Of a stretch of 64,000 bases of DNA, positions 6,340 through 28,529 are shown piece after piece; the first letter of the stretch is position 1; each line of letters opens with the position of its first letter. The DNA comes from a virus, in the IMG/VR virus record IMGVR_UViG_3300030380_003294, one strand, 5' to 3'. The position numbers and the translations under genes are program-made. A model generated the notes under the pieces. The model saw only the letters and a list, made by a program, of their open reading frames with translations, did no database searches and was not told the DNA's origin.

Positions 6340-6342
6340 ATT

Positions 6343-6771: not shown

Positions 6772-6800
6772 ATTATATCATTTTTTGGTGTGTCTGTCAA
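6772..6800 (-). promoter_or_regulatory. Sigma70-type promoter TTGACA-17-TATAAT
   Basis: Perfect consensus on the minus strand; immediately followed by a GGGGGT-AAAACA-ACCCCC-TTTT hairpin. Confidence 0.75.
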
Positions 6801-7136
6801 CTAGGCGAAGCACCCGTTGAAATTTACCTCGATTCCGTTTTCAAAATCTTTAACTGTTTTGTTCTGGTAGTCACCTACGAACCATTCCCAGTTTTTTTGA
6901 AATACTCCGAAACCTGTCGCAAACTCATAACATAGAGCGTTTAATCTGCTCTTAGTTGTGTTTGACTGCCAACCGCCATCGAATAAAACAACAGTGTTAT
7001 CTGTTACTGTTGCGATGTGATTGCCATGTAAAAAGACCTGTGCACCGTTGTCATCATGTGAAACAGAAGTGTTAGAACTGCTGAAGTTGTTACCAGTTCT
7101 GATTGCTCTGTTCATTTGTGCTTCGATCTTTCTCAT
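6801..7136 (-). CDS. Early hypothetical protein (MRKIEAQMN...)
   Basis: Start reassigned to the ATG just downstream of the TATAAT promoter; GWQSNTTKSRLNAL motif seen in small phage proteins. Confidence 0.75.
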   Translation of the reverse strand: MRKIEAQMNRAIRTGNNFSSSNTSVSHDDNGAQVFLHGNHIATVTDNTVVLFDGGWQSNTTKSRLNALCYEFATGFGVFQKNWEWFVGDYQNKTVKDFENGIEVNFNGCFA

Positions 7137-7163
7137 GTGTGTTGCTTTGTTTGTTATGTACTT

Positions 7164-7221
7164 ATTATAACCCCCTAGCAACCCCTGTGTAGTCACCTTA
7201 TGCCACTTTGTCAACTGTCAC
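7164..7221 (-). promoter_or_regulatory. Early promoter with 22-bp palindrome (copy 1)
   Basis: ATGCCAC-N8-CTGTCAC at 7200-7221, 30 bp upstream of TATAAT (7164-7169). Confidence 0.75.
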
Positions 7222-7416
7222 AGGGCATTTGATTTCCATATAATAACCGATTGATTTAATATAATCAAATACGGATAATTTCGGCAATTCTTTATATCTT
7301 TCCCCTCTACGGTTTCTAACATCGTCCATAAAATGTTCCATGTCGTAAATTGATACAAACTCCCCTACAAGTTCGCATTCTTCGTTGTAAATTAGATAGG
7401 TCATTTTATTCTCCAT
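7198..7416 (-). CDS. Early hypothetical protein
   Basis: 72-aa ORF in the early cluster. Confidence 0.6.
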   Translation of the reverse strand: MENKMTYLIYNEECELVGEFVSIYDMEHFMDDVRNRRGERYKELPKLSVFDYIKSIGYYMEIKCPVTVDKVA

Positions 7417-7425
7417 TGTTTATAT

Positions 7426-7626
7426 TTAAGGGGTGTAAACATAATAACAATAACCTTCTGACATGAGATAATTTGCTGTCTTAGTTAACATCGGATCATC
7501 CCAACATTGATCGGTATCTAACAAGAATTGAAACAAAGAGATACCTTCATTTAGTGGGCATAATCCTTTCTCATAAAGTGTTAATAACTCAAGGTACTTT
7601 TGAGGTGCTTTGATGTTACTTAGCAT
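7426..7626 (-). CDS. Early hypothetical protein
   Basis: 66-aa ORF downstream of the promoter at 7665-7693. Confidence 0.6.
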   Translation of the reverse strand: MLSNIKAPQKYLELLTLYEKGLCPLNEGISLFQFLLDTDQCWDDPMLTKTANYLMSEGYCYYVYTP

Positions 7627-7664
7627 TGATACTTAGAACCTTTGTTTGAAACCCTACAGTGTTA

Positions 7665-7693
7665 ATTGTACCAGAATTATAATAATTTGTCAA
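7665..7693 (-). promoter_or_regulatory. Sigma70-type promoter TTGACA-17-TACAAT
   Basis: Near-perfect consensus with a 17-bp spacer. Confidence 0.7.
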
Positions 7694-7946
7694 GTCTATC
7701 TGAGTTTTCTGACAGATGTTGACTTTCGGTAAGTTGCGTGCTAAGAGTACATTTAGTTGACACATTTAACACACTATTGTAAACACTTAGTGATTTTTTT
7801 AAGTATTTAACAATATTCACAAATTTCTACGGAAAGTAACATTTTTCCTTCTTACAGTTAATCTATAATAGTCCCATAAGTCTACAGTCAGTTCTTTACA
7901 CATAGTCCAAAATGTGTTAAACTCGTTGTTACTTACTCCCTGCGGA

Positions 7947-8189
7947 TTACTCTTCTTCATTGTTAGTTACCTCTTCAAAGTACCTATTCTGTTTATTACT
8001 TTTAACCATATCTTTCCATTGATGACTATACACTAAGAGGTTTACTTGTTGATACTTACTACATGCACCTATCTGTAATTCTTCTCTCTTTTCCCATTCA
8101 TTTAGTACTAGGGTTATATAATCTTTATCAATGAAATTAACGAACCCAAAATGTTCATTAAGTGAGTAATAATCGCCTTTTTGAAACAT
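7947..8189 (-). CDS. Early hypothetical protein
   Basis: 80-aa ORF. Confidence 0.65.
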   Translation of the reverse strand: MFQKGDYYSLNEHFGFVNFIDKDYITLVLNEWEKREELQIGACSKYQQVNLLVYSHQWKDMVKSNKQNRYFEEVTNNEEE

Positions 8190-8191
8190 AA

Positions 8192-8404
8192 TTAGATCTT
8201 TAAATAAGGGAACTGATTGTTATCGAAAAAGACTAATTCATTATGAACTAGACACTTTTCGTTTAAATGTTCATCATAGATAGCAACATTCTTTTTCAAC
8301 TGATTAGGGTTGAGTTGTTGTAACTTAGTGAGCAAATCTTCATAGGTCATTGTTGCCATTACGTTAGTAGTTTGTTCACTCCAAGGGATAAGATTCCAAG
8401 ACAT
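8192..8404 (-). CDS. Early hypothetical protein
   Basis: 70-aa ORF; MTYEDLLTKLQQL.P.QL.K.V motif. Confidence 0.6.
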   Translation of the reverse strand: MSWNLIPWSEQTTNVMATMTYEDLLTKLQQLNPNQLKKNVAIYDEHLNEKCLVHNELVFFDNNQFPYLKI

Positions 8405-8446
8405 TTGAATTAATAAGTTAATACTACTTATACATGATTGCGGACG

Positions 8447-8653
8447 TTATTTATCACTTTCCGCACCAAGTTCATTTAGATCCGCAATAGTGAATAATTG
8501 ATAATCTTCCTCCAATTCTTTAATATCAAACTCCATCATGTAATGATCTAGATTAACACCTAATCGGGCAATTTCATTTAGATAAGATTGCATAACTTTC
8601 TTAGACTTGAAGTCATAAATGTTATGTTCTGTTGTCAAAGTTTGCTTAGTCAT
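8447..8653 (-). CDS. Early hypothetical protein
   Basis: 68-aa ORF. Confidence 0.55.
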   Translation of the reverse strand: MTKQTLTTEHNIYDFKSKKVMQSYLNEIARLGVNLDHYMMEFDIKELEEDYQLFTIADLNELGAESDK

Positions 8654-8694
8654 TGTTAATTAGTGAGTAGAGTAAGTATAAAGAAAACAGGCGA

Positions 8695-9150
8695 TTATCT
8701 CATATAGAGATGACCACCTGCCCAGTCTGTATTGATTGGATTGTGTATATAATTTCTCTCTCTGATAATTCTCATATCAAATCTTACATGTTTAGCGGGA
8801 CTTTTCCATGATGCAGGTTTATATACCTGACCAGTTTTTTTATCAACAAATGCTGTTACTGATCCGCCAGAATGTCTAGGATCAACTTGAATAATCTTGA
8901 AATACTTTTTACCAGACTTGATTTCAAACTTAAGTAATTTCTCTGTACCGTCTTCGATACCTTTTAATTGCTGTTTAGCATAGTCTGATAAGTCTGCTCT
9001 AGGGTTAAGAATATTTCTAGAGTGCATATTAATACGATACTGCTTATAATTCTCAGTCAATGCATTTGCATATGCTTCAGTCCATTCTACAACTCTTTGC
9101 TCTAGAGTTTTTGTTTCTAATTCTTGAGTAGTTAGAGTTGTGATTGTCAT
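8695..9150 (-). CDS. Conserved early phage protein
   Basis: 151 aa; GKKYFKI...AFVDKKTGQVYKPASWKSPAKHVRF motif common in T4-like cyanophage early regions. Confidence 0.75.
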   Translation of the reverse strand: MTITTLTTQELETKTLEQRVVEWTEAYANALTENYKQYRINMHSRNILNPRADLSDYAKQQLKGIEDGTEKLLKFEIKSGKKYFKIIQVDPRHSGGSVTAFVDKKTGQVYKPASWKSPAKHVRFDMRIIRERNYIHNPINTDWAGGHLYMR

Positions 9151-9235
9151 AGTGAGAATAATAAAGAAAAAAGGGAATAAGCAAGAAAGGTATCCCTAAG
9201 CACTTGTGAATGTTAGCATTCTTGCTTATGTTCTT

Positions 9236-9293
9236 ATTATAGGGGAAGAACCAACCACATAAGGGCAATAGTGGACAGTTTATAAAGTGTCAC
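9236..9293 (-). promoter_or_regulatory. Early promoter with 22-bp palindrome (copy 2)
   Basis: TGGACAG-N8-GTGTCAC at 9272-9293, 30 bp upstream of TATAAT (9236-9241). Confidence 0.7.
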
Positions 9294-9458
9294 TATGCTG
9301 CTTGACAAGATATTCTCCTGTCTGTATTCTTTCAAATACTGCTGACTGTTCATCAGTCAGTTCAAAATCCATATCTCTGAGAATATCCCAAAGTTTAATC
9401 ATCTGGTAAGATTCATCAAATGACATTGGAATTGAAATGGGGAAATAAGTTTTTGACA

Positions 9459-9614
9459 TTAATCGTACAATGGGTAACGTACTTCTTTTTCAACTGCATC
9501 CTTCATTACATCATACATTGCAAATTCGGGATCTTCCAATTTACAAGTTGATAGGATGTTGATAACCTCCTCCATGAGACCGATTATCATTTTTTCTTTT
9601 GGTGTTGTCTTCAT
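9459..9614 (-). CDS. Early hypothetical protein (MKTTPKEK...)
   Basis: ATGA overlap with the upstream ORF. Confidence 0.55.
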   Translation of the reverse strand: MKTTPKEKMIIGLMEEVINILSTCKLEDPEFAMYDVMKDAVEKEVRYPLYD

Positions 9615-9769
9615 TGGCATAAGTCCTCGAATCTTTCTCTTGCAATATACTCGCAATGCTCCTGCAATGCTTCCTCGGTTAGTGTATCAGCAATGCCTGA
9701 TTTCTTCATTGCTTCATACTCTTCATCAAAAAGAGTTTCTAACATATCTGCGTGATGTAAAACTGACAT
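9611..9769 (-). CDS. Early acidic hypothetical protein (52 aa)
   Basis: Manual translation MSVLHHADMLETLFDEEYE...ARERFEDLCQ. Confidence 0.6.
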   Translation of the reverse strand: MSVLHHADMLETLFDEEYEAMKKSGIADTLTEEALQEHCEYIARERFEDLCQ

Positions 9770-9988
9770 TTAAGCAACCTCCCTTATGTAACCGTTTTCT
9801 GCTTTGATGAATGCATCTAACTTAGCAACATCTAGATCAGCATCATCAAATTCAATTTTAGCACATCCTGTAACACCCCACTCTTCCAACTCTTGAGTAA
9901 ATTCTGCCCAGTTAGAGCAACAACATGCCATGTTTTGAAAGTTGTCAACTTGAACGATTCTGTTCATGATTGTTTGAGTTTTGTTCAT
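9770..9988 (-). CDS. Early hypothetical protein
   Basis: 72-aa ORF, first gene after promoter copy 3. Confidence 0.65.
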   Translation of the reverse strand: MNKTQTIMNRIVQVDNFQNMACCCSNWAEFTQELEEWGVTGCAKIEFDDADLDVAKLDAFIKAENGYIREVA

Positions 9989-10012
9989 AGTATCTTTGTT
10001 TGTTATGTACTT

Positions 10013-10071
10013 ATTATAAACAATAATGAGATCAAAAGAAACCCACCTTGTGCCACTTTGTTATGTGTCAT
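10013..10071 (-). promoter_or_regulatory. Early promoter with 22-bp palindrome (copy 3)
   Basis: GTGCCAC-N8-GTGTCAT at 10050-10071; TATAAT at 10013-10018. Confidence 0.75.
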
Positions 10072-10641
10072 AGTCCTCCAGTTTTTTGAATAGGTTTGCA
10101 TTAATGTGAATTATCTCTGCTTTGAGATCATCATTCTCAGAATAATGAAAGTTTAAGCATTCTTTGAGATATTCAACTTCTTCCTTACTAAACATTAGCA
10201 CCCTCCAGTTTATCGAATGAATGATAGAATAAGAGATCCAAAATTCTCTCGCTTAATACTTCTTCTTTATCAGTCATATAAAGACGGTAGTTTTTAAATG
10301 CTGAATAGAGTAGTTCATACTCTTCTCTTGTTAAATCTCTCATTTTTTATCATTATTAAGTGGACTTGCGAAGTAATCCCTATTGGCAACAAATAAAACT
10401 AGCAATGCTGTGAAGATGCCAAAGAATCCAATTATCAATATTGGGGACTGGGGAAAATCGTAGGTTGGAATTGTCATTGTTTAATCCTCGTAGTATGGTG
10501 CAAAAAGTTGATAGTAAAAATCATCAAAGATTTGAAACTGGTAAGCGGTATCTGCTAGAGTTTCATCCTGATCCCATCCTTTACCAACTGTATTAGTGGG
10601 ATGATTGTAACAGTCTAAAACTGCCTGATAAGTATCGTATT

Positions 10642-10854
10642 TCATTTCTTTAAAATTCCTTTAGTTGAAGTTGACAAGTAAGTAGACTTTGCTGACATTA
10701 CATTGTCTACCATGTTATCGAAAGTCTGGACATCCCAGTCTTTCATTTCTGCGATGTCTAGATCATATGCTGACATCACGAGGTCAACGAGCATATCGTA
10801 TTGACCAGAAGTAATCTCGATGTTGAGACCTTTAGTGGAAGTTGTTTTGTTCAT
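10642..10854 (-). CDS. Early hypothetical protein (MNKTTSTK...)
   Basis: ATG lies 7 nt after the -10 box, so the mRNA is probably leaderless. Confidence 0.65.
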   Translation of the reverse strand: MNKTTSTKGLNIEITSGQYDMLVDLVMSAYDLDIAEMKDWDVQTFDNMVDNVMSAKSTYLSTSTKGILKK

Positions 10855-10860
10855 GTCTTT

Positions 10861-10918
10861 ATTATAACCACTCATGACCCCATTGCGAGGATCATTGTGC
10901 CACTTTATCATCTGGCAC
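10861..10918 (-). promoter_or_regulatory. Early promoter with 22-bp palindrome (copy 4)
   Basis: GTGCCAC-N8-CTGGCAC at 10897-10918; TATAAT at 10861-10866. Confidence 0.8.
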
Positions 10919-11201
10919 AAGGGTTTGGATTTCCGTTGTGATCTTTTGGTAGTCTTAAATCGTTCTCATCAGTATAGTATGAGTCTACTGCATTCTTCAC
11001 TTCTTTATAAACACCTAAAATGGCATCTTTACCAAAATAGTCATGTTCGATTGTATCATGACCAGTACAAGAAGATCCCCAACTTGTTACATCGCTATCG
11101 ATGCGAGCATATAATCCTCTGGTTATATGGTTAAGTAATCCTAGTTCTCTTTTAGATAATCGGATTACTACTTCTTTTGAATTGTCGTAGTTCATGAGCA
11201 T
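10908..11201 (-). CDS. Early hypothetical protein
   Basis: ORF overlapping the upstream gene; start uncertain. Confidence 0.55.
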   Translation of the reverse strand: MLMNYDNSKEVVIRLSKRELGLLNHITRGLYARIDSDVTSWGSSCTGHDTIEHDYFGKDAILGVYKEVKNAVDSYYTDENDLRLPKDHNGNPNPCAR

Positions 11202-11470
11202 TGTAAAGTGTAAAGTTTTCTCTCTTCTGTTGTTAGACAACATTCGCAAATTCGATGTGCGAAATCGTAGAACATAACAGGGGCATCATCATCCCATCCG
11301 TAAACATCGTTTGGTGTAATGTCTTCATCAAGTGGAATCTTTGTATCACATCTGTCACACTCTAGTGAAGCACATTCAGCACACATATAACCATCATCGG
11401 ACGGTATTCTGTTTACATACCATCCAGATCCAAAATCTACGGATCTACCACATTCTGTGCAACATGTCAT
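11192..11470 (-). CDS. Early Cys-rich, putative zinc-binding protein
   Basis: Four CxxC motifs in 92 aa. Confidence 0.65.
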   Translation of the reverse strand: MTCCTECGRSVDFGSGWYVNRIPSDDGYMCAECASLECDRCDTKIPLDEDITPNDVYGWDDDAPVMFYDFAHRICECCLTTEERKLYTLQCS

Positions 11471-11685
11471 TTTTGATCTCCATAATAGTTTACTGCATCG
11501 GACACAACTAAGTGCCTATGAATGTAGAGTAACTTATCAAGTTCGATACCCTCTAAGTCAGTCCACTCACTCACATAATCGGTTTGATCTTCCATGAGAG
11601 TGCCATCCTTTAACCAAGGACATGAGCATAAGTTATGCTCTTCATCTAACCAAAATGCTCTACCAAAGTGAAGTGAATGTATCAT
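11467..11685 (-). CDS. Early hypothetical protein
   Basis: 72-aa ORF with ATGA overlaps. Confidence 0.65.
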   Translation of the reverse strand: MIHSLHFGRAFWLDEEHNLCSCPWLKDGTLMEDQTDYVSEWTDLEGIELDKLLYIHRHLVVSDAVNYYGDQK

Positions 11686-11945
11686 CTGAAATTCAACTCC
11701 CTGACTGGGTTTTGAGCATCTTCGATTGCTCTTGTTTCGATGATGATGTCTCTGACTCTTTCTCTATCGAGACTATCGCCCTCGCCCCAGTTGATTGTAT
11801 CAGTTGATGCACATAGATCAAGATACTTAAGGATTGCGATTGCGATCTCTCCAGTTGTTAGTCCATCGATAGGATAGAGAACATCGGGATGACTAGGTAA
11901 GTAGAATGATTCAACATACTCTAGAAATTCTTGAAAGTTGTGCAT
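11682..11945 (-). CDS. Early hypothetical protein
   Basis: 87 aa; F.EYV.SFY and GDSLDRERVRDI motifs of a cyanophage early family. Confidence 0.7.
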   Translation of the reverse strand: MHNFQEFLEYVESFYLPSHPDVLYPIDGLTTGEIAIAILKYLDLCASTDTINWGEGDSLDRERVRDIIIETRAIEDAQNPVRELNFR

Positions 11946-11965
11946 GTGTCCTTTGCTTAACTATT

Positions 11966-12026
11966 ATTATAATAGAGGATATTCACAACGAATGGGGAAA
12001 CTATGTGCCACTAATCGAACTGGCAC
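11966..12026 (-). promoter_or_regulatory. Early promoter with 22-bp palindrome (copy 5)
   Basis: GTGCCAC-N8-CTGGCAC at 12005-12026; TATTATAAT -10 region at 11966-11974. Confidence 0.8.
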
Positions 12027-12027
12027 A

Positions 12028-12261
12028 CTACCACATTTCTTCTGGTTGTTTTGCTCTATTATCCATCATTAGTTGATATTCTTCTTCTGTTCTTACTCTG
12101 AGTCTATCTTGTGTCTCTTGTAACTGTTGTAATGTGTTCTCTATCTCTGGAAATTCGAGATCACATCCTGCTTCATTGATCTCTGAGATCTTCCACTCAA
12201 GATAGTAAATCACATCACTTAGTTGATCGTAACTAAGGGGAACATTGATTGTTTTGGTCAT
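12028..12261 (-). CDS. Early hypothetical protein
   Basis: 77-aa ORF. Confidence 0.6.
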   Translation of the reverse strand: MTKTINVPLSYDQLSDVIYYLEWKISEINEAGCDLEFPEIENTLQQLQETQDRLRVRTEEEYQLMMDNRAKQPEEMW

Positions 12262-12503
12262 GCTAGTCTCCTGTCAAGTAAGTAAGAAATAAAGTTGTTG
12301 TGGTCTGCCCAGTCCTGATCGTAAAAGTCTTCGATGACTTGTTCAATTACTTCCTGTTTAGTTTGCTCACTCGCAAACTCATATCCATAGGATTGTATGA
12401 CATGCTCAATATCTGCTCTCACGTCAACATACTCAAGTCTAAACTTAAGGATGTCTGGGCAAGATTCGATCCATGCCTGAAAATCTTTGTCTGCTTGATT
12501 CAT
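12258..12503 (-). CDS. Early hypothetical protein
   Basis: 81-aa ORF with ATGA overlaps. Confidence 0.6.
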   Translation of the reverse strand: MNQADKDFQAWIESCPDILKFRLEYVDVRADIEHVIQSYGYEFASEQTKQEVIEQVIEDFYDQDWADHNNFISYLLDRRLA

Positions 12504-19041: not shown

Positions 19042-19851
19042 TTAAGAATAATTGTAGACGATTACACAACCTGCACCACCACGACTGTTGTTGTGTGCAT
19101 AACTGTTTTGAGAATAATATCCATAACCTCCACCAGAACCCCATTGTCCATGGGTGTTCTCAGCGTTAGTGCTACTGTTATGGTGGTTTGATCCTGCTTT
19201 ATGCCAGAAACTACATCCAGATCCACCTTCTCTGTTAGATCCGTGGGACATTTCACCACCGCCCCCTGGCAAATTAATGTCTCCACCACTGGCGTTTCCA
19301 CCATGTCCACCTTCATATGGGTTATCAGTATAACCTCCATCACCACCAGTAGCAGTACAGTATGAACCAAAGGATGAAGTTCCTCCTGATCCTCCTCTAC
19401 CACCATTCCTAACATAGTCGCCACCACCACCGTAAGTATAACTTACAGTACTAACACCTGAGACGTCAATATATTTAATTGCGGTTGCTCCACCGCCTCC
19501 ACCTGCACCACGATAGTTGTTATCGTTAGTTCTAGAACCTCCACCACCACCTGTAACATATACTAAAACATGGTTGCAACCCGCAGGTTTTGTCCAAGTT
19601 CCAGATCCACCAGAAGTAGAGTTACTGTTCCATGTACCATTCTGCGATGTATATACGTTTATACCTAATAATCTACCCTCCATTGCGGTGGGAACCCATG
19701 CTGATCCGTTCCACATAATAGAATGGTTCGTACTGGGTGTACCAGAAAGAAATCCAGTCAGATTAGTAGCAGGTGCAGTATTAATAGTTGACGAGTCGCC
19801 AGTAAACTGGGTAGTTCCAACACTCAAAGTACCTACATTTAACTGTGACAT
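19042..19851 (-). CDS. Glycine-rich fibre/receptor-binding-like protein
   Basis: SGTWTKPAG...VYVTGGGGG...GGTSSFG...GGAGCVIVY glycine-rich domain. Confidence 0.75.
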   Translation of the reverse strand: MSQLNVGTLSVGTTQFTGDSSTINTAPATNLTGFLSGTPSTNHSIMWNGSAWVPTAMEGRLLGINVYTSQNGTWNSNSTSGGSGTWTKPAGCNHVLVYVTGGGGGSRTNDNNYRGAGGGGGATAIKYIDVSGVSTVSYTYGGGGDYVRNGGRGGSGGTSSFGSYCTATGGDGGYTDNPYEGGHGGNASGGDINLPGGGGEMSHGSNREGGSGCSFWHKAGSNHHNSSTNAENTHGQWGSGGGYGYYSQNSYAHNNSRGGAGCVIVYNYS

Positions 19852-19880: not shown

Positions 19881-19888
19881 TATTTATA
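19881..19888 (-). promoter_or_regulatory. T4 gp55-type late promoter TATAAATA
   Basis: Exact consensus 30 bp upstream of the 19851 start, overlapping the upstream stop codon. Confidence 0.75.
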
Positions 19889-20921
19889 GAATAAACGTCA
19901 CTAGGAATGCATACCCTATTAACCATAAACACAATCCACCTAAGACCTTATAATATTTCTTGAGAGGTGTACCAAAGTATTGTTGTCCGATCATCAAACA
20001 TTTATGTGCAGGGGATAGTAGATACCCTGAGTATTCAGTTGCTAAGAACCATACAAGATACTGTTGACCAAAGATCAATACAAGTGCTGATGTCATACCT
20101 GCATACTTACCTGATGATCCCATGATATATGCTGCAACCATACCTACGAGAGTTACAGGAATAATCATACTAGGATCTGCTGCTTTTAGATATGCCATGA
20201 CAGGTGCTTTAATAAGACCTACCACACCACCAAGAGCAAGAACAATAGTAGCAATAATAGCAAAACGACCGTCAAGATACTTACCCCACTTCCAATCTTT
20301 ACAAATGATACTGTAATAACATGCCATGCCTATGAACCAAGGAAAGAAGAATATTGCTCCTGCTTTACCTACACACAATAAGAACCAAATCGTTGCAATA
20401 AATGGTGCCCATCCTCGTAATGCCCTCTGCCAGTTGAAGTCTCGGATATTATCCATGTTAGGTACAACTGATCGGGGATCAACCTTAGTAAAGATGAACC
20501 ACCATGTATATACCAAACAGATAATCAGAGGTACAAATGTATATGATAGCATTTGTCCATAAGTAATACCCAATGCTGCCATAGGCAGGATGATAGTCTT
20601 TTCTAATGGACTCCACCAATAGTAATGATGAGTTGAAAGATAATCAATGATCCCGAAGTTGGATCTCTTTTCTTTACTTGGTGGTGCGATAGCATCCAGT
20701 AGTGGTGCGGATAGTGCTACCCTGCCTGGGATTGGTAGTACACCACCCAAGATAGAGGTGATAATAATCATCACCCTGTTGTCTTTAATATATTTCTTTG
20801 CGAGTGAGTAAACATCATCTAGTACATGATACTCTCGAATAAATCCACCGAGGATCATGATACCAAAAATGTAACCCATGTAGAGTTCTTTTTGGGCGAT
20901 CGATTCTAAGATCTTAGACAT
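19884..20921 (-). CDS. Multi-pass membrane protein, DUF401-like (ion-transporter superfamily)
   Basis: About 9-10 hydrophobic segments; PGRVALSAPLLD and GYLLSPAHKCL motifs. Confidence 0.7.
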   Translation of the reverse strand: MSKILESIAQKELYMGYIFGIMILGGFIREYHVLDDVYSLAKKYIKDNRVMIIITSILGGVLPIPGRVALSAPLLDAIAPPSKEKRSNFGIIDYLSTHHYYWWSPLEKTIILPMAALGITYGQMLSYTFVPLIICLVYTWWFIFTKVDPRSVVPNMDNIRDFNWQRALRGWAPFIATIWFLLCVGKAGAIFFFPWFIGMACYYSIICKDWKWGKYLDGRFAIIATIVLALGGVVGLIKAPVMAYLKAADPSMIIPVTLVGMVAAYIMGSSGKYAGMTSALVLIFGQQYLVWFLATEYSGYLLSPAHKCLMIGQQYFGTPLKKYYKVLGGLCLWLIGYAFLVTFIL

Positions 20922-21414
20922 AATTAAAGTTGATTACCATTCTAAAGGATGCATTTGTAGTTGATGTACCTGTATGTTTCATACCATTTGGAAAGGTTAC
21001 GAACCTGTTAGCAACAGATTCTACCTTAGTACCATCTTCAAATGCTGTGTATCCATCACATGTATTCATATAAAGGATACTTGTCTTTATGTATGGACGA
21101 TCTTCTGCATCCAATACATCAACATGCATACCATGTTCAACGAGACGATCAGTCCCCATGACAAGATTTGCTTTGCACTTGATCATAGCACAAGGTTGTA
21201 CTTTTTGCAAGACAGGGTAAAGAACTTCAATAGTCTTGTCAACAGGTGCATGCCTGTCATAAAAGAAATGTACCATCTGCATATTACGATTCACATTCTC
21301 AGGTGTGTCATCAACAATCTTAGATGATTCCCAGAGTATGTTGTAACTCATCATCATCTTATACAGATGTGTAAACTCTTCTACTGGTAGGAACTGATCT
21401 TCTACATTAATCAT
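20914..21414 (-). CDS. 2OG-Fe(II) oxygenase-like protein
   Basis: HxD (HVD)...SILYMNTCDGYT...H (KHTG)...R (RMVINFNY); start reassigned to MINVEDQF. Confidence 0.8.
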   Translation of the reverse strand: MINVEDQFLPVEEFTHLYKMMMSYNILWESSKIVDDTPENVNRNMQMVHFFYDRHAPVDKTIEVLYPVLQKVQPCAMIKCKANLVMGTDRLVEHGMHVDVLDAEDRPYIKTSILYMNTCDGYTAFEDGTKVESVANRFVTFPNGMKHTGTSTTNASFRMVINFNYV

Positions 21415-21701
21415 TAATAAAGCGACTCCTCCTGATTGCTCAGAATAACTACATCGGACTCTGGATATGCCACACAAGTGAGAACAAATCCTTCTGCGAG
21501 TTGGTCATCATCAAGGAAAGATTGCTCTTCTTGATTGACTGTACCTTCCTCGACTTTACCTGCACAAGTTGAACAAGCACCTGCTCTACACGAGTATGGT
21601 AGATCAACTCCTGCTTCTTCTGCTGCGTCTAGAATATACTGATCGCCTTCGCATTCAAAGGTATCTTTAGTGCCATCGGGGTGTTTAAAAGTAACGTTCA
21701 T
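21414..21701 (-). CDS. petF: Plant-type [2Fe-2S] ferredoxin
   Basis: [15 protein letters not shown]...DQSFL-like EQSFLDDDQ...VLTCVAYP. Confidence 0.97.
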
Positions 21702-21728
21702 AGGATATCAAATGGAACATCCTATATA

Positions 21729-23453
21729 TTACTTCTCAATCACAGCAACGTGTACACCATTCCAGAAATCGTTAGCATCCTCTGACTTTTCGGTCAGAAT
21801 AGTTCTCTCCCACAGCACATTCTTGTCTTTTAGAAACTCCTTTGCTCTTTCCATTACTTTGTCAAAGTTTGCATCATCAATAACCAGAATGTAATCCTTA
21901 TCAGCATGCTTATGAAGATGTTCCAAGTTTGGAATCATATCCTCGTTGACATCAGCATCATAGAATATCACACGAGGGGGATACTGAGGATTAAATTCAA
22001 CTGCTTGAATAGGTTTAACAGAGAAACCAATAGAACAATCAGTATTCATCCATTTCTCTGCGTTCTTAATGAACTCATCAACTGGATTTGTGACGTTCTC
22101 GTAATCTTTATGCAAGTCTTTACGTTTAGGTTTGATAATTTCATCTTGGAAATCATCAATAGCATATGCCTTGACTGCACTATTCTGATATAGAGCAGCG
22201 AATACTGTACTACCCATGTATGCACCTGCATCAACATATACTGTCCCACGCTCATTGCATAGGTTGTTGAGTAAGTGTCTGATTTTATTAGATGACAATC
22301 CAAGCACATCATAACCCTCAGGGTTAAAATTAGAGTTGTTATCTACAGCACCATCAATGGCACGAATGGCACGATCTACCAGAGGATTCATTTTTCGTTG
22401 TTGCTTCTTCAATCGAGAGTCTAGCACAGATTCGCAATAGTTGCAATCCCAACAGTCAAATTGACATGTTTTAATCTTCTCTCGCCAGATATTTATGGGT
22501 GCATCAGGCATCTTGATGTCATCCATGTACTCTTCAAAGTGAGGAAACATCAACGTAGTTGGTTCTTGCCATCTTTCAATAAGATCCATGGACTCTTTTA
22601 GTCTCATGCCATCTTCTCTACCATGTAACTTGAATACATCAATACCAAGATCTAAGAACTCTTGCCAGTCCTCCTTCCAAGGGGGTAAGTTTGCTGCTTT
22701 AAGTTCATGTGCAGGGTCATAAGCATCCCATCGCTGACATGATACACGACTGATAGTGCTATTGAAGTATTGAGGTTCACTTCCCTGTCTTGTACTATTA
22801 TATTGATAATGCTCTGGCATGATAGGACATCCACCCCAACAATGCTCATTCACAAGCAATGATAGTTTGACTGGATTACCTTTCTCTTCACAATATTTCT
22901 TGGCATCAACAATTCTTTTTAGCAGATTTCTATCTCTCATCACATCCCTATCAAGGTTAATGTAATGGAAACCTGCACTTGCAAGGGTGACTATCTCGTT
23001 AGGTTTTGTCACCTCTCGTAAGATAGTATTCTTAATTTCTAGTTCTGGAAAATGTTTTTGGATCTGTCCAGTCATGATCCATGATGTATGAGGTATAGTT
23101 GCACACCTCACACCATTATCATATAGAAACTTAAAGTTCTTGATGAACTCATCTAGGTTCTTTTGATCGGGTCTTACCCAAATGTTATTGAATGTAGCAG
23201 ACAGGGGAATACCTGTCTTATCTGAAATGTATAAAGCATTCTTTGCAGCACCTTGTGCATCGCTATTGGTGCGAAAAACATCCCCCATCGCATCCTGCAT
23301 GAATGGGGGCATTCTTGTAGTAAAGTATAGGTCGTATATTACCGTTCCATTTCTCAGCAGGAATGGAATGAACTCCTCGTCAATAAACTCAGGACTTACC
23401 TTCGGATTGATTGGCAGACTGAATACGCCTATCTTCGAGGTTGTTGTGTGCAT
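21729..23453 (-). CDS. U32-family (TIM-barrel Fe-S) domain fused to a class I SAM methyltransferase
   Basis: LLVNEHCWGGCP...H...SC...FKLHGRE and CQFDCWDCNYC motifs; C-terminal YVDAGAYMGST...AIDDF...IFYD...LVIDD Rossmann methyltransferase (Methyltransf_24-like). Confidence 0.75.
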   Translation of the reverse strand: MHTTTSKIGVFSLPINPKVSPEFIDEEFIPFLLRNGTVIYDLYFTTRMPPFMQDAMGDVFRTNSDAQGAAKNALYISDKTGIPLSATFNNIWVRPDQKNLDEFIKNFKFLYDNGVRCATIPHTSWIMTGQIQKHFPELEIKNTILREVTKPNEIVTLASAGFHYINLDRDVMRDRNLLKRIVDAKKYCEEKGNPVKLSLLVNEHCWGGCPIMPEHYQYNSTRQGSEPQYFNSTISRVSCQRWDAYDPAHELKAANLPPWKEDWQEFLDLGIDVFKLHGREDGMRLKESMDLIERWQEPTTLMFPHFEEYMDDIKMPDAPINIWREKIKTCQFDCWDCNYCESVLDSRLKKQQRKMNPLVDRAIRAIDGAVDNNSNFNPEGYDVLGLSSNKIRHLLNNLCNERGTVYVDAGAYMGSTVFAALYQNSAVKAYAIDDFQDEIIKPKRKDLHKDYENVTNPVDEFIKNAEKWMNTDCSIGFSVKPIQAVEFNPQYPPRVIFYDADVNEDMIPNLEHLHKHADKDYILVIDDANFDKVMERAKEFLKDKNVLWERTILTEKSEDANDFWNGVHVAVIEK

Positions 23454-24291
23454 AATCTGAGAGAACTCCTGCTGTATCAAATAGTTGCGGTGGTTTGCCT
23501 TCCATCATTTTATCGACCCTTGCTTCTGCTGCTTCTTTAATGCCACCAACAGATCTATTGACAGCAGTAGAGTATGTCATCGCAAGATCACATACAGCAC
23601 CTTGATCTTCTGGTGCCATTTGCAACATAGATTCCAAGTTACCTGCTTGGATTCTACCAGTAGTTAGCAAGTCAATAGCAGACTGTTTACCCATACGAGC
23701 AATCCAATACTTATGCTCTTCAACTTCTTCTAGTTGTTTGTCCTCTAGAATTTTGACAATTTCACTTGCATCGTCAGTTCCTGCTTTCTCTTTAATAATA
23801 TTAAAGAAACCATTGAGTTCCTCTTTACATTGCCTGAGTTTGTTTAACCAAATCTGCCTATCAAGATACAGCAATTCTAGTTCGTATTGCTTATCCTGCT
23901 TGTAAAAAGGATTCTCTTCCTTTTCCATTTCATGCTTAACTCTAGCAATATCATTTAGACACCGCTTGAATTGAATTGTACTTTTTGATAGAGAATTCGT
24001 TCTACCTTGAATCTCCATCATTGCCTGTCGGATCTGCCTGTAGGGTGTGACCTGACTATTAACAACGTAATACTTGTTTTGAAATTCTGTTTGTCCGAAG
24101 TGTTGTTGCTCTGACCATGCCATCAGAGATTCATCGAACTTATCAATTTCTTCCCACTTATCAATACCTTCGAGTTCCTTAATTACATCAGAAACTCTGT
24201 AATCGGTATCAGAACTGGATTCCTTTTGAGTAGTCGAAAGGTTGTTTTCTTTCGATGTTTCCTGTTTCTTCATTGGTTGTGCATCTTCCAT
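23389..24291 (-). CDS. Helical/coiled-coil hypothetical protein
   Basis: About 300 aa; GQTEFQNKYYVVNSQVTPYRQIRQAMMEI and YWIARMGKQSAIDLL; start at 24291 or 24273. Confidence 0.75.
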   Translation of the reverse strand: MEDAQPMKKQETSKENNLSTTQKESSSDTDYRVSDVIKELEGIDKWEEIDKFDESLMAWSEQQHFGQTEFQNKYYVVNSQVTPYRQIRQAMMEIQGRTNSLSKSTIQFKRCLNDIARVKHEMEKEENPFYKQDKQYELELLYLDRQIWLNKLRQCKEELNGFFNIIKEKAGTDDASEIVKILEDKQLEEVEEHKYWIARMGKQSAIDLLTTGRIQAGNLESMLQMAPEDQGAVCDLAMTYSTAVNRSVGGIKEAAEARVDKMMEGKPPQLFDTAGVLSDYAHNNLEDRRIQSANQSEGKS

Positions 24292-24976
24292 ATTCAAGAC
24301 ATTGTGCATTTGACATTGCACTATTGAAGTAATCTTCAAGTACAACGTTCAGTTCACGAACACTAGAACACCCATTAATAATCTGGATCATCTTTTGTTC
24401 TGCGACTGCTAAGTCATAGAGTCCTGTTTTAAACTCTGATTGCTTGTCAACTATTTTAGTCGCAAACTGTAGAGTTGTCAAGTCTCTGACCTCTGCTAAC
24501 TTATGTATAAGTTTTGTCTCGAACTCATTATCAGCAAGGTATGCGGTTGCTTCACAAATCTGATCTGACCATGTTGCTTCTTCAAGTGTAGAGAATTTAG
24601 TTTTAAGAACATTATGTCTATGCTCAAACTCTTCTTGCACTGCCAGTACCATGACATCCTTCATGAAAGGAATGACATAGTTTGAGTACATTGTATCATC
24701 TATAGTCTCTTTTTCTTTATTTGTAGTTCCCTCTTCGTTTTGTCCGTAAGTAGATCTTTGATGCCTAATCTCTCCCCAGTACTTGTCTCCAAAGATACCA
24801 TCTTTACTGGTATATCTGAGATATGTAATGTGCTGAGGGATATACTTAAAGTATTCATCTGCAAGATGATATGATTCCAGTCCTAGGTAAGTACCAATAC
24901 GGACTCCCCACTCTCCCACCTTAGGATATTTCTCGACATCTAAAACGATGACGTCATTTGAAGTTGTGCTTGTCAT
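24209..24976 (-). CDS. Tail-fibre assembly chaperone-like protein
   Basis: EEATWSDQICEATAYLAD...LAEVRDLT...KIVDK resembles the E..TW..Q..EA.A motif of fibre-assembly proteins. Confidence 0.6.
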   Translation of the reverse strand: MTSTTSNDVIVLDVEKYPKVGEWGVRIGTYLGLESYHLADEYFKYIPQHITYLRYTSKDGIFGDKYWGEIRHQRSTYGQNEEGTTNKEKETIDDTMYSNYVIPFMKDVMVLAVQEEFEHRHNVLKTKFSTLEEATWSDQICEATAYLADNEFETKLIHKLAEVRDLTTLQFATKIVDKQSEFKTGLYDLAVAEQKMIQIINGCSSVRELNVVLEDYFNSAMSNAQCLEYGRCTTNEETGNIERKQPFDYSKGIQF

Positions 24977-26358
24977 TAGTAGTTAGGAATGTTTGTACCG
25001 TAATCGTAGTTGCCCTGTCCTGATACAGAACTAGAGGACGAACAGTGTGCTGATGACATGCCACCATGTCCTGATGGTGGTGAACTACCACCTAAGTTGT
25101 TGTAACTATCACTATTATAGTTCACTTTGAATGTGTTATTGTTCTGAGAACCATTATAGTTACCTAAACAATATCCTTTTCTCATACCCATTTCAAAGTT
25201 TTCTTCACCCATGTTACCGAAGTTAAGACCTCTAACTTGAATACCAGTAATGTCGTTACACTTCTGGTTACCATTCTGGTTGTTATTACCTGTACCAACG
25301 TACATATGTCCTAACATACTAGGAAGAATCTTCTTCCAACCATCACCACCTGGTCCATGTTCCCATGACACCCAAGATTCAGTCTTGAAGAACTGACCTC
25401 TTCTAGTTCCAGATCTCTTGACCCAACCATAAAGTCTTCCATGTCCACCCCATGTAGGGTCATCGCCACCATCATCATAGTTTGGTGGGAAACCTGAGGT
25501 TCTCATAGTTTCAGTCTTAAGATTCATAGCGTCAACTCTTGAGTTACCACCACCATATAGGTAAGACATACCTCCTGCGTGTTCATGATCTTGGTGAGAT
25601 CCCATTGAACCTCTGTTCACCGTCATGTTCCACTGCGACTGGTGTGTTAAACCAGATTCAGTTGACATTGACATCGCATTGGTATAGTTTGAAGAACCTC
25701 TATAAGTGTTCTCCATAGAGTGAAAGAAGTGCTTAGTATCAGTCCATGATCCTGCCATGTAAGCACCTGATCTATCTAAGATATCTCCTAAGTTCGATGA
25801 TGTATCTGTAGAGTGTACCGTTCTGTTTACGTTTCTCCAAGGCGAACCAGACTGGTAACCTCCTCCAACATATCCGTGTGTCCAAATTCTTGCTGTTGAC
25901 CATCCATTATCGTTTTCTCCATCGAATGACCAATATGCGTTAGTTCCGTCTGATCTTAATAATGCTCCGTTCGTGTAATTTAAACTATATCTATCGTTAG
26001 ACTGGTCTGGTAATGAACTTCCTGCTCCTGCAATCGGACCCCATTGTACCTGTCCTGCGTCTTGATCGTATGAGTAACCTTCAAAGGTTCTATCTGTACT
26101 GTTATATCTGAATAATCCTTCTACTGCTGCCCCTGGTCTTTGTGCGGTAGTACCTACAGGTACTTTCATACCGTCTGTACCTGCAATATCTAACGTATAA
26201 CTAGGTGATGCATCATTAACACCGAGTCTATTATTAGTAGAGTCAACATACAGAGTGCCAGAGTCAAAGTTAAAGTTTCCACCCGCCTCCAGTTGGAATT
26301 CAGCAGTTCCACCACCACCTGTTAGTGATACAATTTTATCAACGTTTAACTGAGACAT
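24976..26358 (-). CDS. Fibre-type N-terminal adaptor plus kelch-like beta-propeller protein
   Basis: PVGTTAQRP...GLFRYN domain, then GYVGGG/SYLYGGG/GYCLG blade-like repeats. Confidence 0.7.
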   Translation of the reverse strand: MSQLNVDKIVSLTGGGGTAEFQLEAGGNFNFDSGTLYVDSTNNRLGVNDASPSYTLDIAGTDGMKVPVGTTAQRPGAAVEGLFRYNSTDRTFEGYSYDQDAGQVQWGPIAGAGSSLPDQSNDRYSLNYTNGALLRSDGTNAYWSFDGENDNGWSTARIWTHGYVGGGYQSGSPWRNVNRTVHSTDTSSNLGDILDRSGAYMAGSWTDTKHFFHSMENTYRGSSNYTNAMSMSTESGLTHQSQWNMTVNRGSMGSHQDHEHAGGMSYLYGGGNSRVDAMNLKTETMRTSGFPPNYDDGGDDPTWGGHGRLYGWVKRSGTRRGQFFKTESWVSWEHGPGGDGWKKILPSMLGHMYVGTGNNNQNGNQKCNDITGIQVRGLNFGNMGEENFEMGMRKGYCLGNYNGSQNNNTFKVNYNSDSYNNLGGSSPPSGHGGMSSAHCSSSSSVSGQGNYDYGTNIPNY

Positions 26359-26384
26359 GTGTAGTTTTTACTCCTTCGTATTAT

Positions 26385-27494
26385 TTATGCAGGTCGAACA
26401 AGCACACAACCTCTTTTAAGGTATGTATCCTCGTTTCCACTGTCTTGGTCTGAGTGAATAACAACATGCATATCATCTGTGTATGATGTGCCGAGATCAA
26501 CGGTGAACCATGCATCACCATTAAACACGTTTGGTCCAGTACCACCAGAATTATCTCCTGGCTGAACTGTAAAGTTTCTCACAAATTCTGAGGTGTAACT
26601 AGATCCAGATCTAGAGAAGCATGTGTATCTATTACCCATGAAACCACCTGGGTTGTTACCACCTGCAACGTGAGTTGGTTGCATTCCTGCTACTGATGGG
26701 CATGAGTTACCATCATTATTAGAAATAGCAGTATAGTAAGTAAAGATGTGTTGTCCATCCCCTGCACCTGAGTTGTCACGCATGATCGTTAGACCATCAC
26801 CAACACCAGATGAAATATTTAGGAAGTTACGACCATTGACACCATCATTAGAATAATAGTTATAGAGATTAAATCTCATCTTTACATAACGATATGATAC
26901 ACCTCTATTACTAAAGGTTGCATATCGATAATCAGATCCACCTACGTTTCTGTAGTAACCGTATGTGCTATTGTTTGTAAAGTTACCTGCAGGAGTTGTA
27001 TCTCCTGTGTCATTCAAGTTATTACCTGATAATGATGATGCGTTACTGAAGAATGCAGCACCACCGCCACCCCAGTTACCAATCAAAAGATAATATGGAT
27101 GACTGTTTACAGGCACAAAGTATCTACGAACTGTACCATCTAGGTTTAGATAGTAGTTACCGTCAGCAGCAACACCTGCATCCATAAGTTCTTGAACACT
27201 AGATGCTGCTGTAGCAGCAGTTCCACCATTATTACCACCAGATGATGCCCTTACAATTTGTAACCATGAACTACCATTATAAACTTCTACTTGCAATTCT
27301 TCTGTATTAAACCTAATCATTCCTGTTGATGGGGATGATGGTCTTTGTGCTGTAGTTCCTGCAGGTAAACTAAATTGATTAAGTGCAGTCATATTACATG
27401 TACCCGCAACAAGCAACGACTCTCCATCATCGAAGTTGATCTCGAAGTTATTCATCGAGGATGCGTGTAGTTCGTTAACGTTTAGAGTACTCAT
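26385..27494 (-). CDS. Fibre/receptor-binding-like protein
   Basis: LPAGTTAQRP..GMIRFN adaptor, ADGNYYL fibrinogen-like linker, lectin-like C-terminus. Confidence 0.7.
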   Translation of the reverse strand: MSTLNVNELHASSMNNFEINFDDGESLLVAGTCNMTALNQFSLPAGTTAQRPSSPSTGMIRFNTEELQVEVYNGSSWLQIVRASSGGNNGGTAATAASSVQELMDAGVAADGNYYLNLDGTVRRYFVPVNSHPYYLLIGNWGGGGAAFFSNASSLSGNNLNDTGDTTPAGNFTNNSTYGYYRNVGGSDYRYATFSNRGVSYRYVKMRFNLYNYYSNDGVNGRNFLNISSGVGDGLTIMRDNSGAGDGQHIFTYYTAISNNDGNSCPSVAGMQPTHVAGGNNPGGFMGNRYTCFSRSGSSYTSEFVRNFTVQPGDNSGGTGPNVFNGDAWFTVDLGTSYTDDMHVVIHSDQDSGNEDTYLKRGCVLVRPA

Positions 27495-27497: not shown

Positions 27498-28529
27498 TTA
27501 TGCGTAGAAGAATAACCAGTACATATGATTTTGGGATCCAGGGTTATTTATCCCCCAACTACCAGACCAGTTAGGTTCTGGGAAGTTTTGGTTTGAATAG
27601 TTGTTACCTGTCTGTCCTACCCATGCATGGTGTTCAACGTTACAACCGTTAGATGCACAACCTAAAGCATTAATCATACTGAAAGTATAGTTTTCGCAGT
27701 TTGCGGGTGAAACATGCCAAGTATTGTTTGGATTAAGTTCACCTGCACTACTACCTCTATATCTATTGTCTGATGCCTGTGCAGATCCTTTCAAGAACTG
27801 CATTCCTGAGAGTTGTGTACCACCAATGTTACTATGGTTGTTTAGAGAGATGTAACTATTGAACATATTATACATGTTTCCACCTCTGGAAGTGAAAACA
27901 CCATTGATATATGCAACTTCAGTAGATGTATCGTAAGGTGTACCTGCTGTAGCAAACCCTTGCATAATCAATACATCATTTGCTGACCATCCTCTATAAT
28001 GATTTGACTTGAAGTCAGTTCCCATTGCATTTCTTGCAGTACCAGTAGTTGATGTAGTTGTCCAGTTACCATACCAAGAGTCTGAACCACCTGTGTAACT
28101 ACCATGTGAAGTATTGTCTGTAATAGATGCAACCATGACCCAATACTTACCATTACCATCCTTATATGCATACACTTCTTCTGTATTAGTGCCATCAAAC
28201 TTGATATACCAATATCCAGATCCAGGGTCATTACTTGATAAGTTTGCCATTGATGTGAATGGTGCATTAGATGTACCATTCTCTCCTTGATATTGTACCC
28301 AAGTGCTACCACTCCATACTTCTACCGCCTGATCACTTGTATTCCACCGTATATACCCTGGGTTTGGACTACTTGGTCTTTGCCCAGTTGTACCTGTAGG
28401 TAGACGCAAAGCACCAGTTCCATCGTGATAAACATTACCGTTTATCTGCAATGTATGCCCTGCAGGAATTGATGTTTGATTTAGTGTTGCGGGTATGCCA
28501 CCGATGCTACCAACAGTTAGTCTGCTCAT
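27498..28529 (-). CDS. Fibre/receptor-binding-like protein (fibrinogen/intelectin-like head)
   Basis: LPTGTTGQRP..GYIRWN adaptor; SGYWYIK...WVMVAS...DFKS pattern. Confidence 0.7.
   Translation of the reverse strand: MSRLTVGSIGGIPATLNQTSIPAGHTLQINGNVYHDGTGALRLPTGTTGQRPSSPNPGYIRWNTSDQAVEVWSGSTWVQYQGENGTSNAPFTSMANLSSNDPGSGYWYIKFDGTNTEEVYAYKDGNGKYWVMVASITDNTSHGSYTGGSDSWYGNWTTTSTTGTARNAMGTDFKSNHYRGWSANDVLIMQGFATAGTPYDTSTEVAYINGVFTSRGGNMYNMFNSYISLNNHSNIGGTQLSGMQFLKGSAQASDNRYRGSSAGELNPNNTWHVSPANCENYTFSMINALGCASNGCNVEHHAWVGQTGNNYSNQNFPEPNWSGSWGINNPGSQNHMYWLFFYA

Follow-up and report, generated by a model that had tools for sequence, protein, structure and literature searches.

In the trmR-trhP1-trhP2 operon of Bacillus subtilis, U32 proteins hydroxylate U34 and a COMT-like methyltransferase gives mo5U34 (PMC6599085). 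Other U32 enzymes, UbiU/V and RlhA, are described as carrying out an O2-independent, prephenate-dependent hydroxylation with a Cys-ligated 4Fe-4S cluster (PMC10990095, PMC5727448). Here we describe a phage gene, g4, whose product appears to join the two kinds of fold in a single polypeptide: its N-terminal barrel is read as a divergent member of the U32 superfamily, its C-terminal domain resembles O-methyltransferases, and the barrel behaves as an obligate pair with the product of the preceding gene, g3. Both belong to a run of seven genes (g1, g2, g3, g4, petF, g6 and g7) at positions 19884-26358 of the IMG/VR virus record IMGVR_UViG_3300030380_003294, whose whole analysed stretch of 64,000 nucleotides (nt) we call the window. 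The source virus is a marine T4-like cyanomyovirus, with metaG-MbCM1 (83% DNA identity) and P-RSM1 (86%) as its nearest sequenced relatives. The first four genes correspond to clusters T4-GC351 ('sericin-like') and T4-GC352-354, all of them hypothetical proteins in Sullivan et al. 2010 (PMC3037559).

Domains predicted in g4 and its partner g3

The products of g1-g4 match only PHROGs of unknown function, and sequence searches with them against Pfam, NCBIfam and PDB retrieved no match. The two genes of main interest and the domains of g4 are as follows.

g4: 21729-23453, minus strand; 574 amino acids; U32-like barrel plus O-methyltransferase-like domain; T4-GC354
g4 N-terminal domain (g4N): 22389-23453, minus strand; residues 1 to ~355; divergent U32-like TIM barrel
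g4 C-terminal domain: 21729-22328, minus strand; residues 376-574; class I S-adenosylmethionine (SAM)-methyltransferase fold
g3: 23389-24291, minus strand; 300 amino acids; all-helical, with a long antiparallel hairpin; phrog_1409, T4-GC353

The AlphaFold model of g4 is confident (predicted local distance difference test, pLDDT, 89.2), and a structure search with it identified residues 5-289 as a TIM barrel whose best solved match is the U32 protein Mk0906 (PDB 5d88). Superposition on 5d88_A gave a Z of 16.4, a root mean square deviation of 3.3 A with 227 of 247 residues aligned, and a Foldseek template modelling (TM) score of 0.71, at a sequence identity of 10-11%; 5d88 was also the sole TIM barrel among the 50 best matches (Z at least 13.7) of the fold search. 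In a 42-member alignment of the family, seven cysteines are invariant (C205, C209, C239, C330, C334, C337 and C340), spaced as C205-x3-C209-x29-C239 plus an extra C330-x3-C334-x2-C337-x2-C340, and K275, G278 and R279 of a KLHGR motif are near-invariant. A set of canonical U32 proteins, taken from metagenome-assembled genomes (MAGs) that carry g4N homologues, shows an invariant C170-x6-C177-x19-C197 together with K248, I249, G251 and R252 (K-I-E-G-R). Compared by eye, the cysteines after strand 7 and the KxxGR motif are alike in topology in both groups, although their spacing differs. Alignment of the g4 family profile with that of canonical U32 proteins (hhalign) gave a probability of 37% and an E value of 3.6e-4 over 109 columns; these span strands 3-6, and the register is consistent. 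Since the fold is of U32 type, the motifs look alike by eye and the hhalign link is only modest, we read the barrel as a divergent member of the superfamily that lies outside the Pfam family. Indeed, no Pfam family was found in any of ten sampled homologues of the barrel, and in MAGs with g4N homologues the Pfam U32 model does detect the canonical U32 genes.

The C-terminal domain adopts in the model a class I, Rossmann-type fold, nearest to cation-dependent O-methyltransferases of the CCoAOMT/COMT/TrmR type. Its fold matches include 8c9v (Z 17.2), 5x7f (17.1), 3tr6 (16.9) and TrmR 5zw3 (16.2), with the TrmR structures (Z 16.2 and 15.1) and tRNA m1A58 methyltransferases tied close behind the best ones. 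By eye, a likeness to motif I, post-I and the D..D-x-N metal site can be seen in the stretches VYVDAGAYMGS, AIDDF, FYDAD and IDDAN. The U32-methyltransferase fusion named in the first-pass annotation, made from the bare sequence, is thus supported for both folds, by structural comparison. A search of 1.84 billion representative proteins with the barrel alone gave 294 matches at E up to 1e-3, many of them stand-alone proteins of 330-440 amino acids. The fusion partner of the barrel varies within the family, because the C-terminal domain is replaced or degenerate in some relatives. The annotated g4 of P-RSM1 is ~50 codons short of the conserved N-terminus.

The model of g3 (pLDDT 78.6) is all-helical, and its fold search retrieved only its own family and generic helical hairpins, with Z up to 10.6, which is under the meaningful level for helical proteins; likewise, a look-up of g3 in the ESM Atlas yielded no usable match. 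Nevertheless, 23 polar or aromatic residues are invariant in the family, a larger number than a plain coiled coil would be expected to conserve.

The conserved g1-g4 block and its late transcription

We gathered a synteny sample of 80 IMG/VR loci containing the g4 barrel, found with an eight-sequence query and showing 53-90% identity in g4; loci with at least 64% identity define a close clade. Gene g3 immediately preceded g4 in 73 of 74 loci, and the upstream order g1, g2, g3 was kept in 56/56. Among 50,697 phage records, g3 and g4 each match 126, with an identical breakdown by organism and host: 123 cyanophage records, together with the Ralstonia phages RP12 and RP31. As the baseplate gene gp6 occurs in ~459 cyanophage records, the block is present in about one quarter of cyanomyovirus records. 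Cultured phages with g1-g4 include P-HM2, P-SSM4, Syn19, Syn33, S-RIM2 and S-ShM2. In all, g1-g2-g3-g4 is a conserved accessory block, and inside it g3 forms what behaves as an obligate pair with the N-terminal barrel of g4; the coiled-coil protein of the first-pass annotation is, by its shared records and its position, a genuine partner of g4.

The pair extends to an unrelated phage family and host. In the Ralstonia jumbo phages RP12 and RP31, homologues of g3, the g4 barrel and g7 are contiguous and coupled (ORF140-139-138, for open reading frames, all annotated as hypothetical), whereas the methyltransferase domain, g1, g2, g6 and petF are lacking. ORF140 of RP12 is homologous to g3 (hidden Markov model, HMM, E 1.3e-23; fold TM 0.83), ORF139 to the g4 barrel (39% identity) and ORF138 to g7 (31% identity); the three abut or overlap by 8 nt, and are translationally coupled. 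No relation to g1 or g2 was detectable in ORF141 or ORF142. That enzyme, partner and transporter genes have stayed contiguous in such distant phages suggests that the trio works as a functional unit.

The remaining genes of the block and the promoter-like boxes that flank the run are listed below.

g1: 24976-26358, minus strand; 460 amino acids; Gly/Ser/Asn-rich, 'sericin-like'; phrog_1417, T4-GC351; first gene of the late unit
g2: 24209-24976, minus strand; 255 amino acids; phrog_1604, T4-GC352; no Pfam or NCBIfam family
Late-promoter-like box CATAAATA: 26382-26389, minus strand; 23 nt upstream of the g1 start
Box TATAAATA: 19881-19888, minus strand; overlaps the stop codon of g7; late promoter for the gene that follows, which encodes a Gly_rich_2 protein

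With 11 copies found and 8.2 expected, YATAAATA shows no enrichment in the window, but the two flanking boxes are real, as judged from their conservation among relatives. The sequence NATAAATA lies 22-28 nt upstream of g1 in 26/26 distinct related upstream sequences and is found upstream of the gene after g7 in 12/12; conversely, it was absent upstream of g2, g3, g4, g6 and g7 (0/32, 0/27, 0/57, 0/28 and 0/15 sequences, respectively). A third copy of CATAAATA occurs inside g4 (22490-22497), ~760 nt upstream of petF. Scans for sigma-70 promoters and terminators gave results at or near chance and were uninformative. In the Prochlorococcus phage P-HM2, PHM2_098-101 are orthologues of g1-g4 (PHM2_099 being that of g2), and all four were classed as 'Late' in an infection transcriptome (Thompson et al. 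2016, PMC5082946, supplementary file 3). Genes g1-g4 are therefore transcribed late from one promoter located before g1, which is predicted here, with the expression itself seen in the P-HM2 orthologues. Both the late-type boxes at 26382 and 19881 and the single late operon that had been proposed from them hold, because the boxes are conserved and the orthologues are late.

The arrangement of the genes is also as first described: the region is filled by seven contiguous ORFs on the minus strand that overlap or abut, save for one gap of 27 nt, between g4 and petF. The junctions are TAATG, with a 1-nt overlap, for g1/g2, an overlap of 65-83 nt for g2/g3 (many homologues of g3 use the Met at 24273 as start), an overlap of 65 nt for g3/g4, TAATG for petF/g6, and an overlap of 8 nt for g6/g7. 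The region is flanked by baseplate and helicase genes on one side and by long tail-fibre genes on the other. In the annotation of metaG-MbCM1, g2 and g3 are each broken into two ORFs.

The descriptions of g1 and g2 fared less well. Gene g1 had been taken for a beta-propeller fibre protein, yet self-BLAST revealed no internal repeats and the best off-diagonal match in a profile self-comparison had an E value of 0.35 over 20 columns; since no repeats were found, the propeller label stands unverified. A look-up in the ESM Atlas retrieved only the 'sericin-like' clusters of g1 itself. Residues 55-96 of g1, an N-terminal motif of ~40 residues, are 38-40% identical to the proteins encoded at 26385-27494 and 27498-28529; these upstream fibre-like proteins are 33% identical to each other over 121 amino acids. 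For g2, the label 'fibre-chaperone-like' received no support from any search.

The inserted petF and the optional genes g6 and g7

Downstream of g4, the following features come next.

Inserted cassette: 21414-21728, minus strand; 27-nt spacer (21702-21728) plus petF
petF: 21414-21701, minus strand; 95 amino acids; plant-type 2Fe-2S ferredoxin
g6: 20914-21414, minus strand; 166 amino acids; small 2-oxoglutarate (2OG)-Fe(II)-oxygenase-like protein; phrog_274
g7: 19884-20921, minus strand; 345 amino acids; DUF401/COG1906 membrane protein; optional last gene of the unit
Next gene beyond g7: 19042-19851; Gly_rich_2 protein (E 3.7e-9)

The identity of petF as a plant-type ferredoxin was confirmed: it matches Fer2 (PF00111) with 90.8 bits and E 5.4e-26, contains CRAGACSTC...LTC (C-x4-C-x2-C...C), and is 61-77% identical to annotated cyanophage ferredoxins. 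Its membership of a unit in which it may serve the U32 enzyme, as the first-pass annotation suggested, failed the comparison with a sibling contig (L142). In this contig the proteins of g1, g3, g4, g6 and g7 are 97-98% identical to those of the window, and g2 92%; the order is g1-g2-g3-g4-g6-g7, the g4 stop overlaps the g6 start, and petF is absent. Approximately 315 bp, comprising the spacer and petF, were thus inserted exactly at the g4/g6 junction, with the TAATG coupling to g6 kept; the spacer holds an inverted repeat, ATAGGAT..ATCCTAT. Moreover, petF was next to g4 in 0/49 g4 loci with enough downstream DNA, and although it is present in 286 phage records, in S-RIM12 and S-CAM4, which are among the listed records with both genes, it lies tens of kilobases from g4. 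The g4/g6 slot contains an unrelated 89-amino-acid ORF ('esterase') in metaG-MbCM1 (L001:7528-7797) and is empty in P-RSM1 (L002:6498-6501) and in the sibling contig. Because it is missing from so close a sibling and from all 49 loci, and is elsewhere far from g4, petF is best seen as a cassette that entered a hot spot very recently, and thus lies outside the unit and is not a conserved electron donor. The preserved coupling to g6 leaves room for co-expression, and g4 may use the ferredoxin opportunistically. This corrects the tempting reading of a phage ferredoxin as dedicated to the g4 enzyme.

Of 31 close-clade loci, 29 have g6 after g4 and 14 have g7; neither gene was found after g4 in 18 loci of the distant clade. 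The assignment of g6 as a 2OG oxygenase holds as a weak family likeness, with a score of 22.4 bits (E 2.5e-4) against 2OG-FeII_Oxy_3, below the Pfam cut-off of 27; an HxD...H iron triad can be recognized by eye only, from H-V-D and a distal K-H, with an R 11 residues later. GenBank labels of g6 homologues as 'tail fiber protein' or 'DNA endonuclease V (denV)' look wrong.

The DUF401 identity of g7 was corroborated (PF04165, 45.5 bits, cut-off 24), and its score of only 50 bits with TIGR00529, where the cut-off is 378, indicates a short, divergent phage subfamily. DUF401/COG1906 proteins are predicted secondary transporters of the GntP/DctM class, within the ion-transporter superfamily (Makarova et al., PMC5898192). 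Only 12 of the 50,697 phage records contain g7, namely metaG-MbCM1, S-CAM4/ACG-2014j, S-H25 and RP12/RP31, and every phage lineage with g7 is also named among the g4 matches. Among 71 viral contigs bearing g7 and enough upstream DNA, 34 have the order g4-g6-g7. We conclude that the late transcript has received g6 and g7 as optional insertions, and that g7 is tied to g3/g4. The association of DUF401 with g3/g4 is therefore partial: g7 abuts the pair in RP12 and follows g4-g6 in those 34 contigs, whereas it is elsewhere in the remainder, and 30 bacterial DUF401 genes have no U32 neighbour. A general U32-DUF401 link was rejected, after 0/30 bacterial DUF401 loci showed it and no g3 or g7 was found near bacterial g4N genes.

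In two loci examined where g7 is away from g4, it lies downstream of nrdA/nrdB. In one of them (L188:5474-7445) a different small 2OG oxygenase gene comes before it, overlapping by 4 nt, and cpeT comes after it, and in two freshwater contigs (L012:7495-10445; L013:4660-6462) it sits between a porin-like gene and a glutaredoxin gene.

As for the seven genes forming one system, the g1-g4 block is fixed, while g6 and g7 are optional and petF is a recent insertion. In phages, g3 and g4 stay together, and it is petF and about half of the g7 copies that occur elsewhere.

Candidate chemistry, target and known systems

Homologues of g4N also occur in bacteria. A scan of genome contigs with a single peptide pattern found nine loci, so that their prevalence is underestimated. 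They come from MAGs of anaerobes or microaerophiles (Smithella/Syntrophaceae, Desulfocapsa, Sulfurimonas, Hydrogenimonas and Aliarcobacter). In those of Syntrophaceae/Smithella (L096, L099, L100 and L005), the barrel homologue, sometimes as tandem duplicates, is in a conserved cluster with genes for a 1287-amino-acid GLUG-repeat protein, a sulfotransferase, an ATP-grasp enzyme, GNAT and TauE and with the sulfate-activation genes CysD/CysNC; it looks like a sulfation or tailoring cluster. Neighbours in other bacterial loci include an ABC-C39/HlyD/OEP exporter, as well as radical-SAM and SPASM genes. In a Hydrogenimonas MAG (L101:3106-9068), the homologue shares its strand with a type III-A csm operon (Cas10, Csm2, RAMPs) and comes directly after it, which may be a chance adjacency or reflect an accessory gene.

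Another T4-like lineage, known from metagenomic contigs (L008-L011, ~5794-12289), encodes a distant homologue of the barrel, of 432 amino acids, with 26% identity and without methyltransferase. It is located between tail-fibre genes (Peptidase_S74, Gly_rich_2) and gp13/gp14, and its neighbours are a Trp halogenase, a 167-amino-acid ORF, four tandem g6-like paralogues (HMM E 4e-13 to 1e-4) and a ferritin. The Gly_rich_2 domain of the gene after g7 in the window thus also occurs in fibre-adjacent genes of this lineage (L008). Taken together, the bacterial and distant-phage contexts lean towards the tailoring of a peptide, a protein or a surface polymer.

Our preferred reading, to which we give a probability of about one half, is that g4 is a late tailoring enzyme that hydroxylates and then O-methylates its substrate, with g3 as obligate partner and a late protein as the favoured target. 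According to it, the barrel would bind one or two Fe-S or other metal centres through the seven invariant cysteines and would hydroxylate an aromatic or heteroaromatic carbon without O2, as do TrhP, RlhA and UbiU/V; the fused domain, of the cation-dependent type, would then methylate the new hydroxyl. The helical g3 would serve the barrel as adaptor or scaffold, and the DUF401 carrier, where present, would move a small anionic co-substrate or a metal complex. The weakest step is the target, probably a late-made protein, which is favoured because of the late expression, the fibre-like g1 at the head of the operon and the bacterial contexts, and for which g1 would be the prime candidate in cyanophages. 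A bolder version, which we hold to be doubtful, would make g3-g4 the first protein-acting O2-independent hydroxylase of U32 type, hydroxylating and O-methylating aromatic residues of tail-fibre-like proteins (g1 and perhaps its neighbours) with co-substrate or iron supplied by the DUF401 protein. If true, marine phages would possess chemically tailored receptor-binding appendages.

Several observations weigh against the preferred reading. Comparison of g4 with Pfam at E up to 0.1 retrieved no family, the U32 model included, and the profile-profile link to U32, at 37%, is modest. The C-terminal domain likewise had no sequence match in Pfam, NCBIfam or PDB, with methyltransferase models missing g4, and it is degenerate or not methyltransferase-like in some full-length relatives (P0004 and P0007). 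The trio of RP12 comes without g1, g2 or the methyltransferase domain, which implies that g1 is not a universal target, and the fibre protein, proposed as a possible substrate in the first-pass annotation, would be at best a candidate. The transporter is loosely associated, since g7 is away from g4 in 37/71 viral contigs and 56 kb from it in S-CAM4; no U32, g4N or g3 gene was found within the 1.5-kb flanks of 30 DUF401 loci of Desulfobacterota, nor any homologue of g3 or g7 near bacterial g4N genes. The published virion proteomes are those of S-SM1, S-PM2 and Syn9, none of which is named among the g3/g4 matches listed. Finally, the substrates characterised so far for U32 enzymes are, to our knowledge, always RNA bases or precursors of quinones, never proteins. 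This, together with the lack of g1 and g2 in RP12, keeps a nucleic acid or a metabolite in play as the target.

With a nucleic acid as substrate, g4 and g3 would convert pyrimidine C5-H into ho5U/ho5C and then mo5U/mo5C in tRNA, rRNA or phage DNA, and the adjacency to fibre genes would be incidental. The sole characterised pairing of a U32 protein with a COMT-like methyltransferase does make mo5U34 (PMC6599085). TrmR is, moreover, among the tied best matches of the C-terminal domain (Z 16.2 and 15.1), and the RP12 trio without g1 and g2 would point to a target common to unrelated hosts. Nevertheless, genes for modifying nucleic acids usually belong to the early or middle class in T4-like phages, whereas the orthologues here are late, in a structural-gene operon with a late promoter before g1 only. 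The g1-g4 synteny is invariant in 56/56 loci, the methyltransferase matches are not specific for TrmR, and the bacterial contexts resemble peptide or protein tailoring, so we consider such a substrate unlikely. A role in making or altering a small aromatic metabolite, quinone-like or other, with g3 as an accessory like UbiT and g7 transporting substrate or product, seems to us less plausible still. UbiU/V are reported to be U32 Fe-S hydroxylases that need an accessory protein (PMC10990095, PMC10470549), which would suit this role. So would a transporter linked to the enzyme, and g7 is found in auxiliary-metabolic-gene regions of other phages. In quinone synthesis, O-methylation by UbiG follows the hydroxylation by UbiU/V. 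However, Cyanobacteria and Ralstonia use different quinones, expression is late and inside a fibre-gene operon, g3 is a helical hairpin that matched no lipid-binding fold, and g7 is missing from most phages with g4.

Two further explanations concern the extent of the system and the nature of the barrel. A non-redox barrel, either a protease of U32 type or a factor in the maturation of fibre proteins, or else a zinc-binding structural or assembly protein, would recall that U32 was first defined as a collagenase family and that a CxxxCxxCxxC motif can bind zinc, and RP12 does carry a collagen-repeat protein three genes upstream. We deem it very unlikely, given that the fusion to an O-methyltransferase-like domain suits hydroxylation better and that the U32 proteins whose function has been defined are all reported to be Fe-S hydroxylases (PMC6599085, PMC5727448, PMC10990095). 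Most improbable of all is that the seven genes make up one dedicated system, in which the U32 enzyme would receive its electrons from petF, and both oxygenase and transporter would be integral. The genes are indeed co-oriented and translationally coupled between two conserved late boxes in the window, and the inserted petF keeps its coupling to g6. Yet petF is missing from the sibling contig, which largely refutes this reading for the ferredoxin, and from 49/49 g4 loci; its slot is occupied by an unrelated ORF in metaG-MbCM1, it lies far from g4 in S-RIM12 and S-CAM4, and the distant clade lacks both g6 and g7.

Clusters T4-GC351-354 have been 'hypothetical' since 2010, yet they occur in about one quarter of sequenced cyanomyovirus genomes. 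The present comparison provides g4 with a fold and a plausible chemistry, an obligate partner in g3 and an occasional transporter partner in g7. As the trio of enzyme, partner and transporter also exists in an unrelated jumbo phage, it is a candidate for the enzymatic tailoring of part of the virion, or of some other late target, in abundant viruses of the ocean. The U32 hydroxylase superfamily would, in addition, gain a subfamily that escapes current models.

Among known systems, that of TrhP1/TrhP2 (YrrN/YrrO) and TrmR (YrrM) is like g4 in that a U32-type enzyme is genetically coupled to a COMT-like, cation-dependent O-methyltransferase. These are, however, separate proteins, whereas g4 is a fusion; canonical U32 proteins are recognised by Pfam, unlike g4; g4N differs from TrhP in its C-x3-C spacing and its extra CxxxCxxCxxC cluster; and only g4 has the obligate helical partner g3 and a place in a late phage operon with fibre genes. 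The UbiU-UbiV(-UbiT) proteins and RlhA share with our reading of g4 the U32 TIM barrel, O2-independent hydroxylation and dependence on a partner or accessory protein, all of them predicted features in the case of g4. They differ in showing no match at the sequence level and in having their methyltransferase as a separate protein, and the two partners UbiU and UbiV are both U32 proteins, while g3 is a helical hairpin. The best fold match of the barrel, the U32 peptidase Mk0906 of Methanopyrus kandleri (PDB 5d88), has no fused methyltransferase. As regards the optional genes, petF and multi-copy 2OG-Fe(II) oxygenases are known as sporadic auxiliary genes of cyanomyoviruses (PMC3037559), to which petF and g6 of the window belong; the U32-like/methyltransferase nature of T4-GC354 and its pairing with T4-GC353 were not recognised in that work, and our literature searches found no description linking U32 to these cyanophage genes, which in database records are either hypothetical or misnamed. 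Rather than a demonstrated new kind of system, g4/g3 is thus a divergent variant of the U32 superfamily, equipped with a fused methyltransferase and a new partner.

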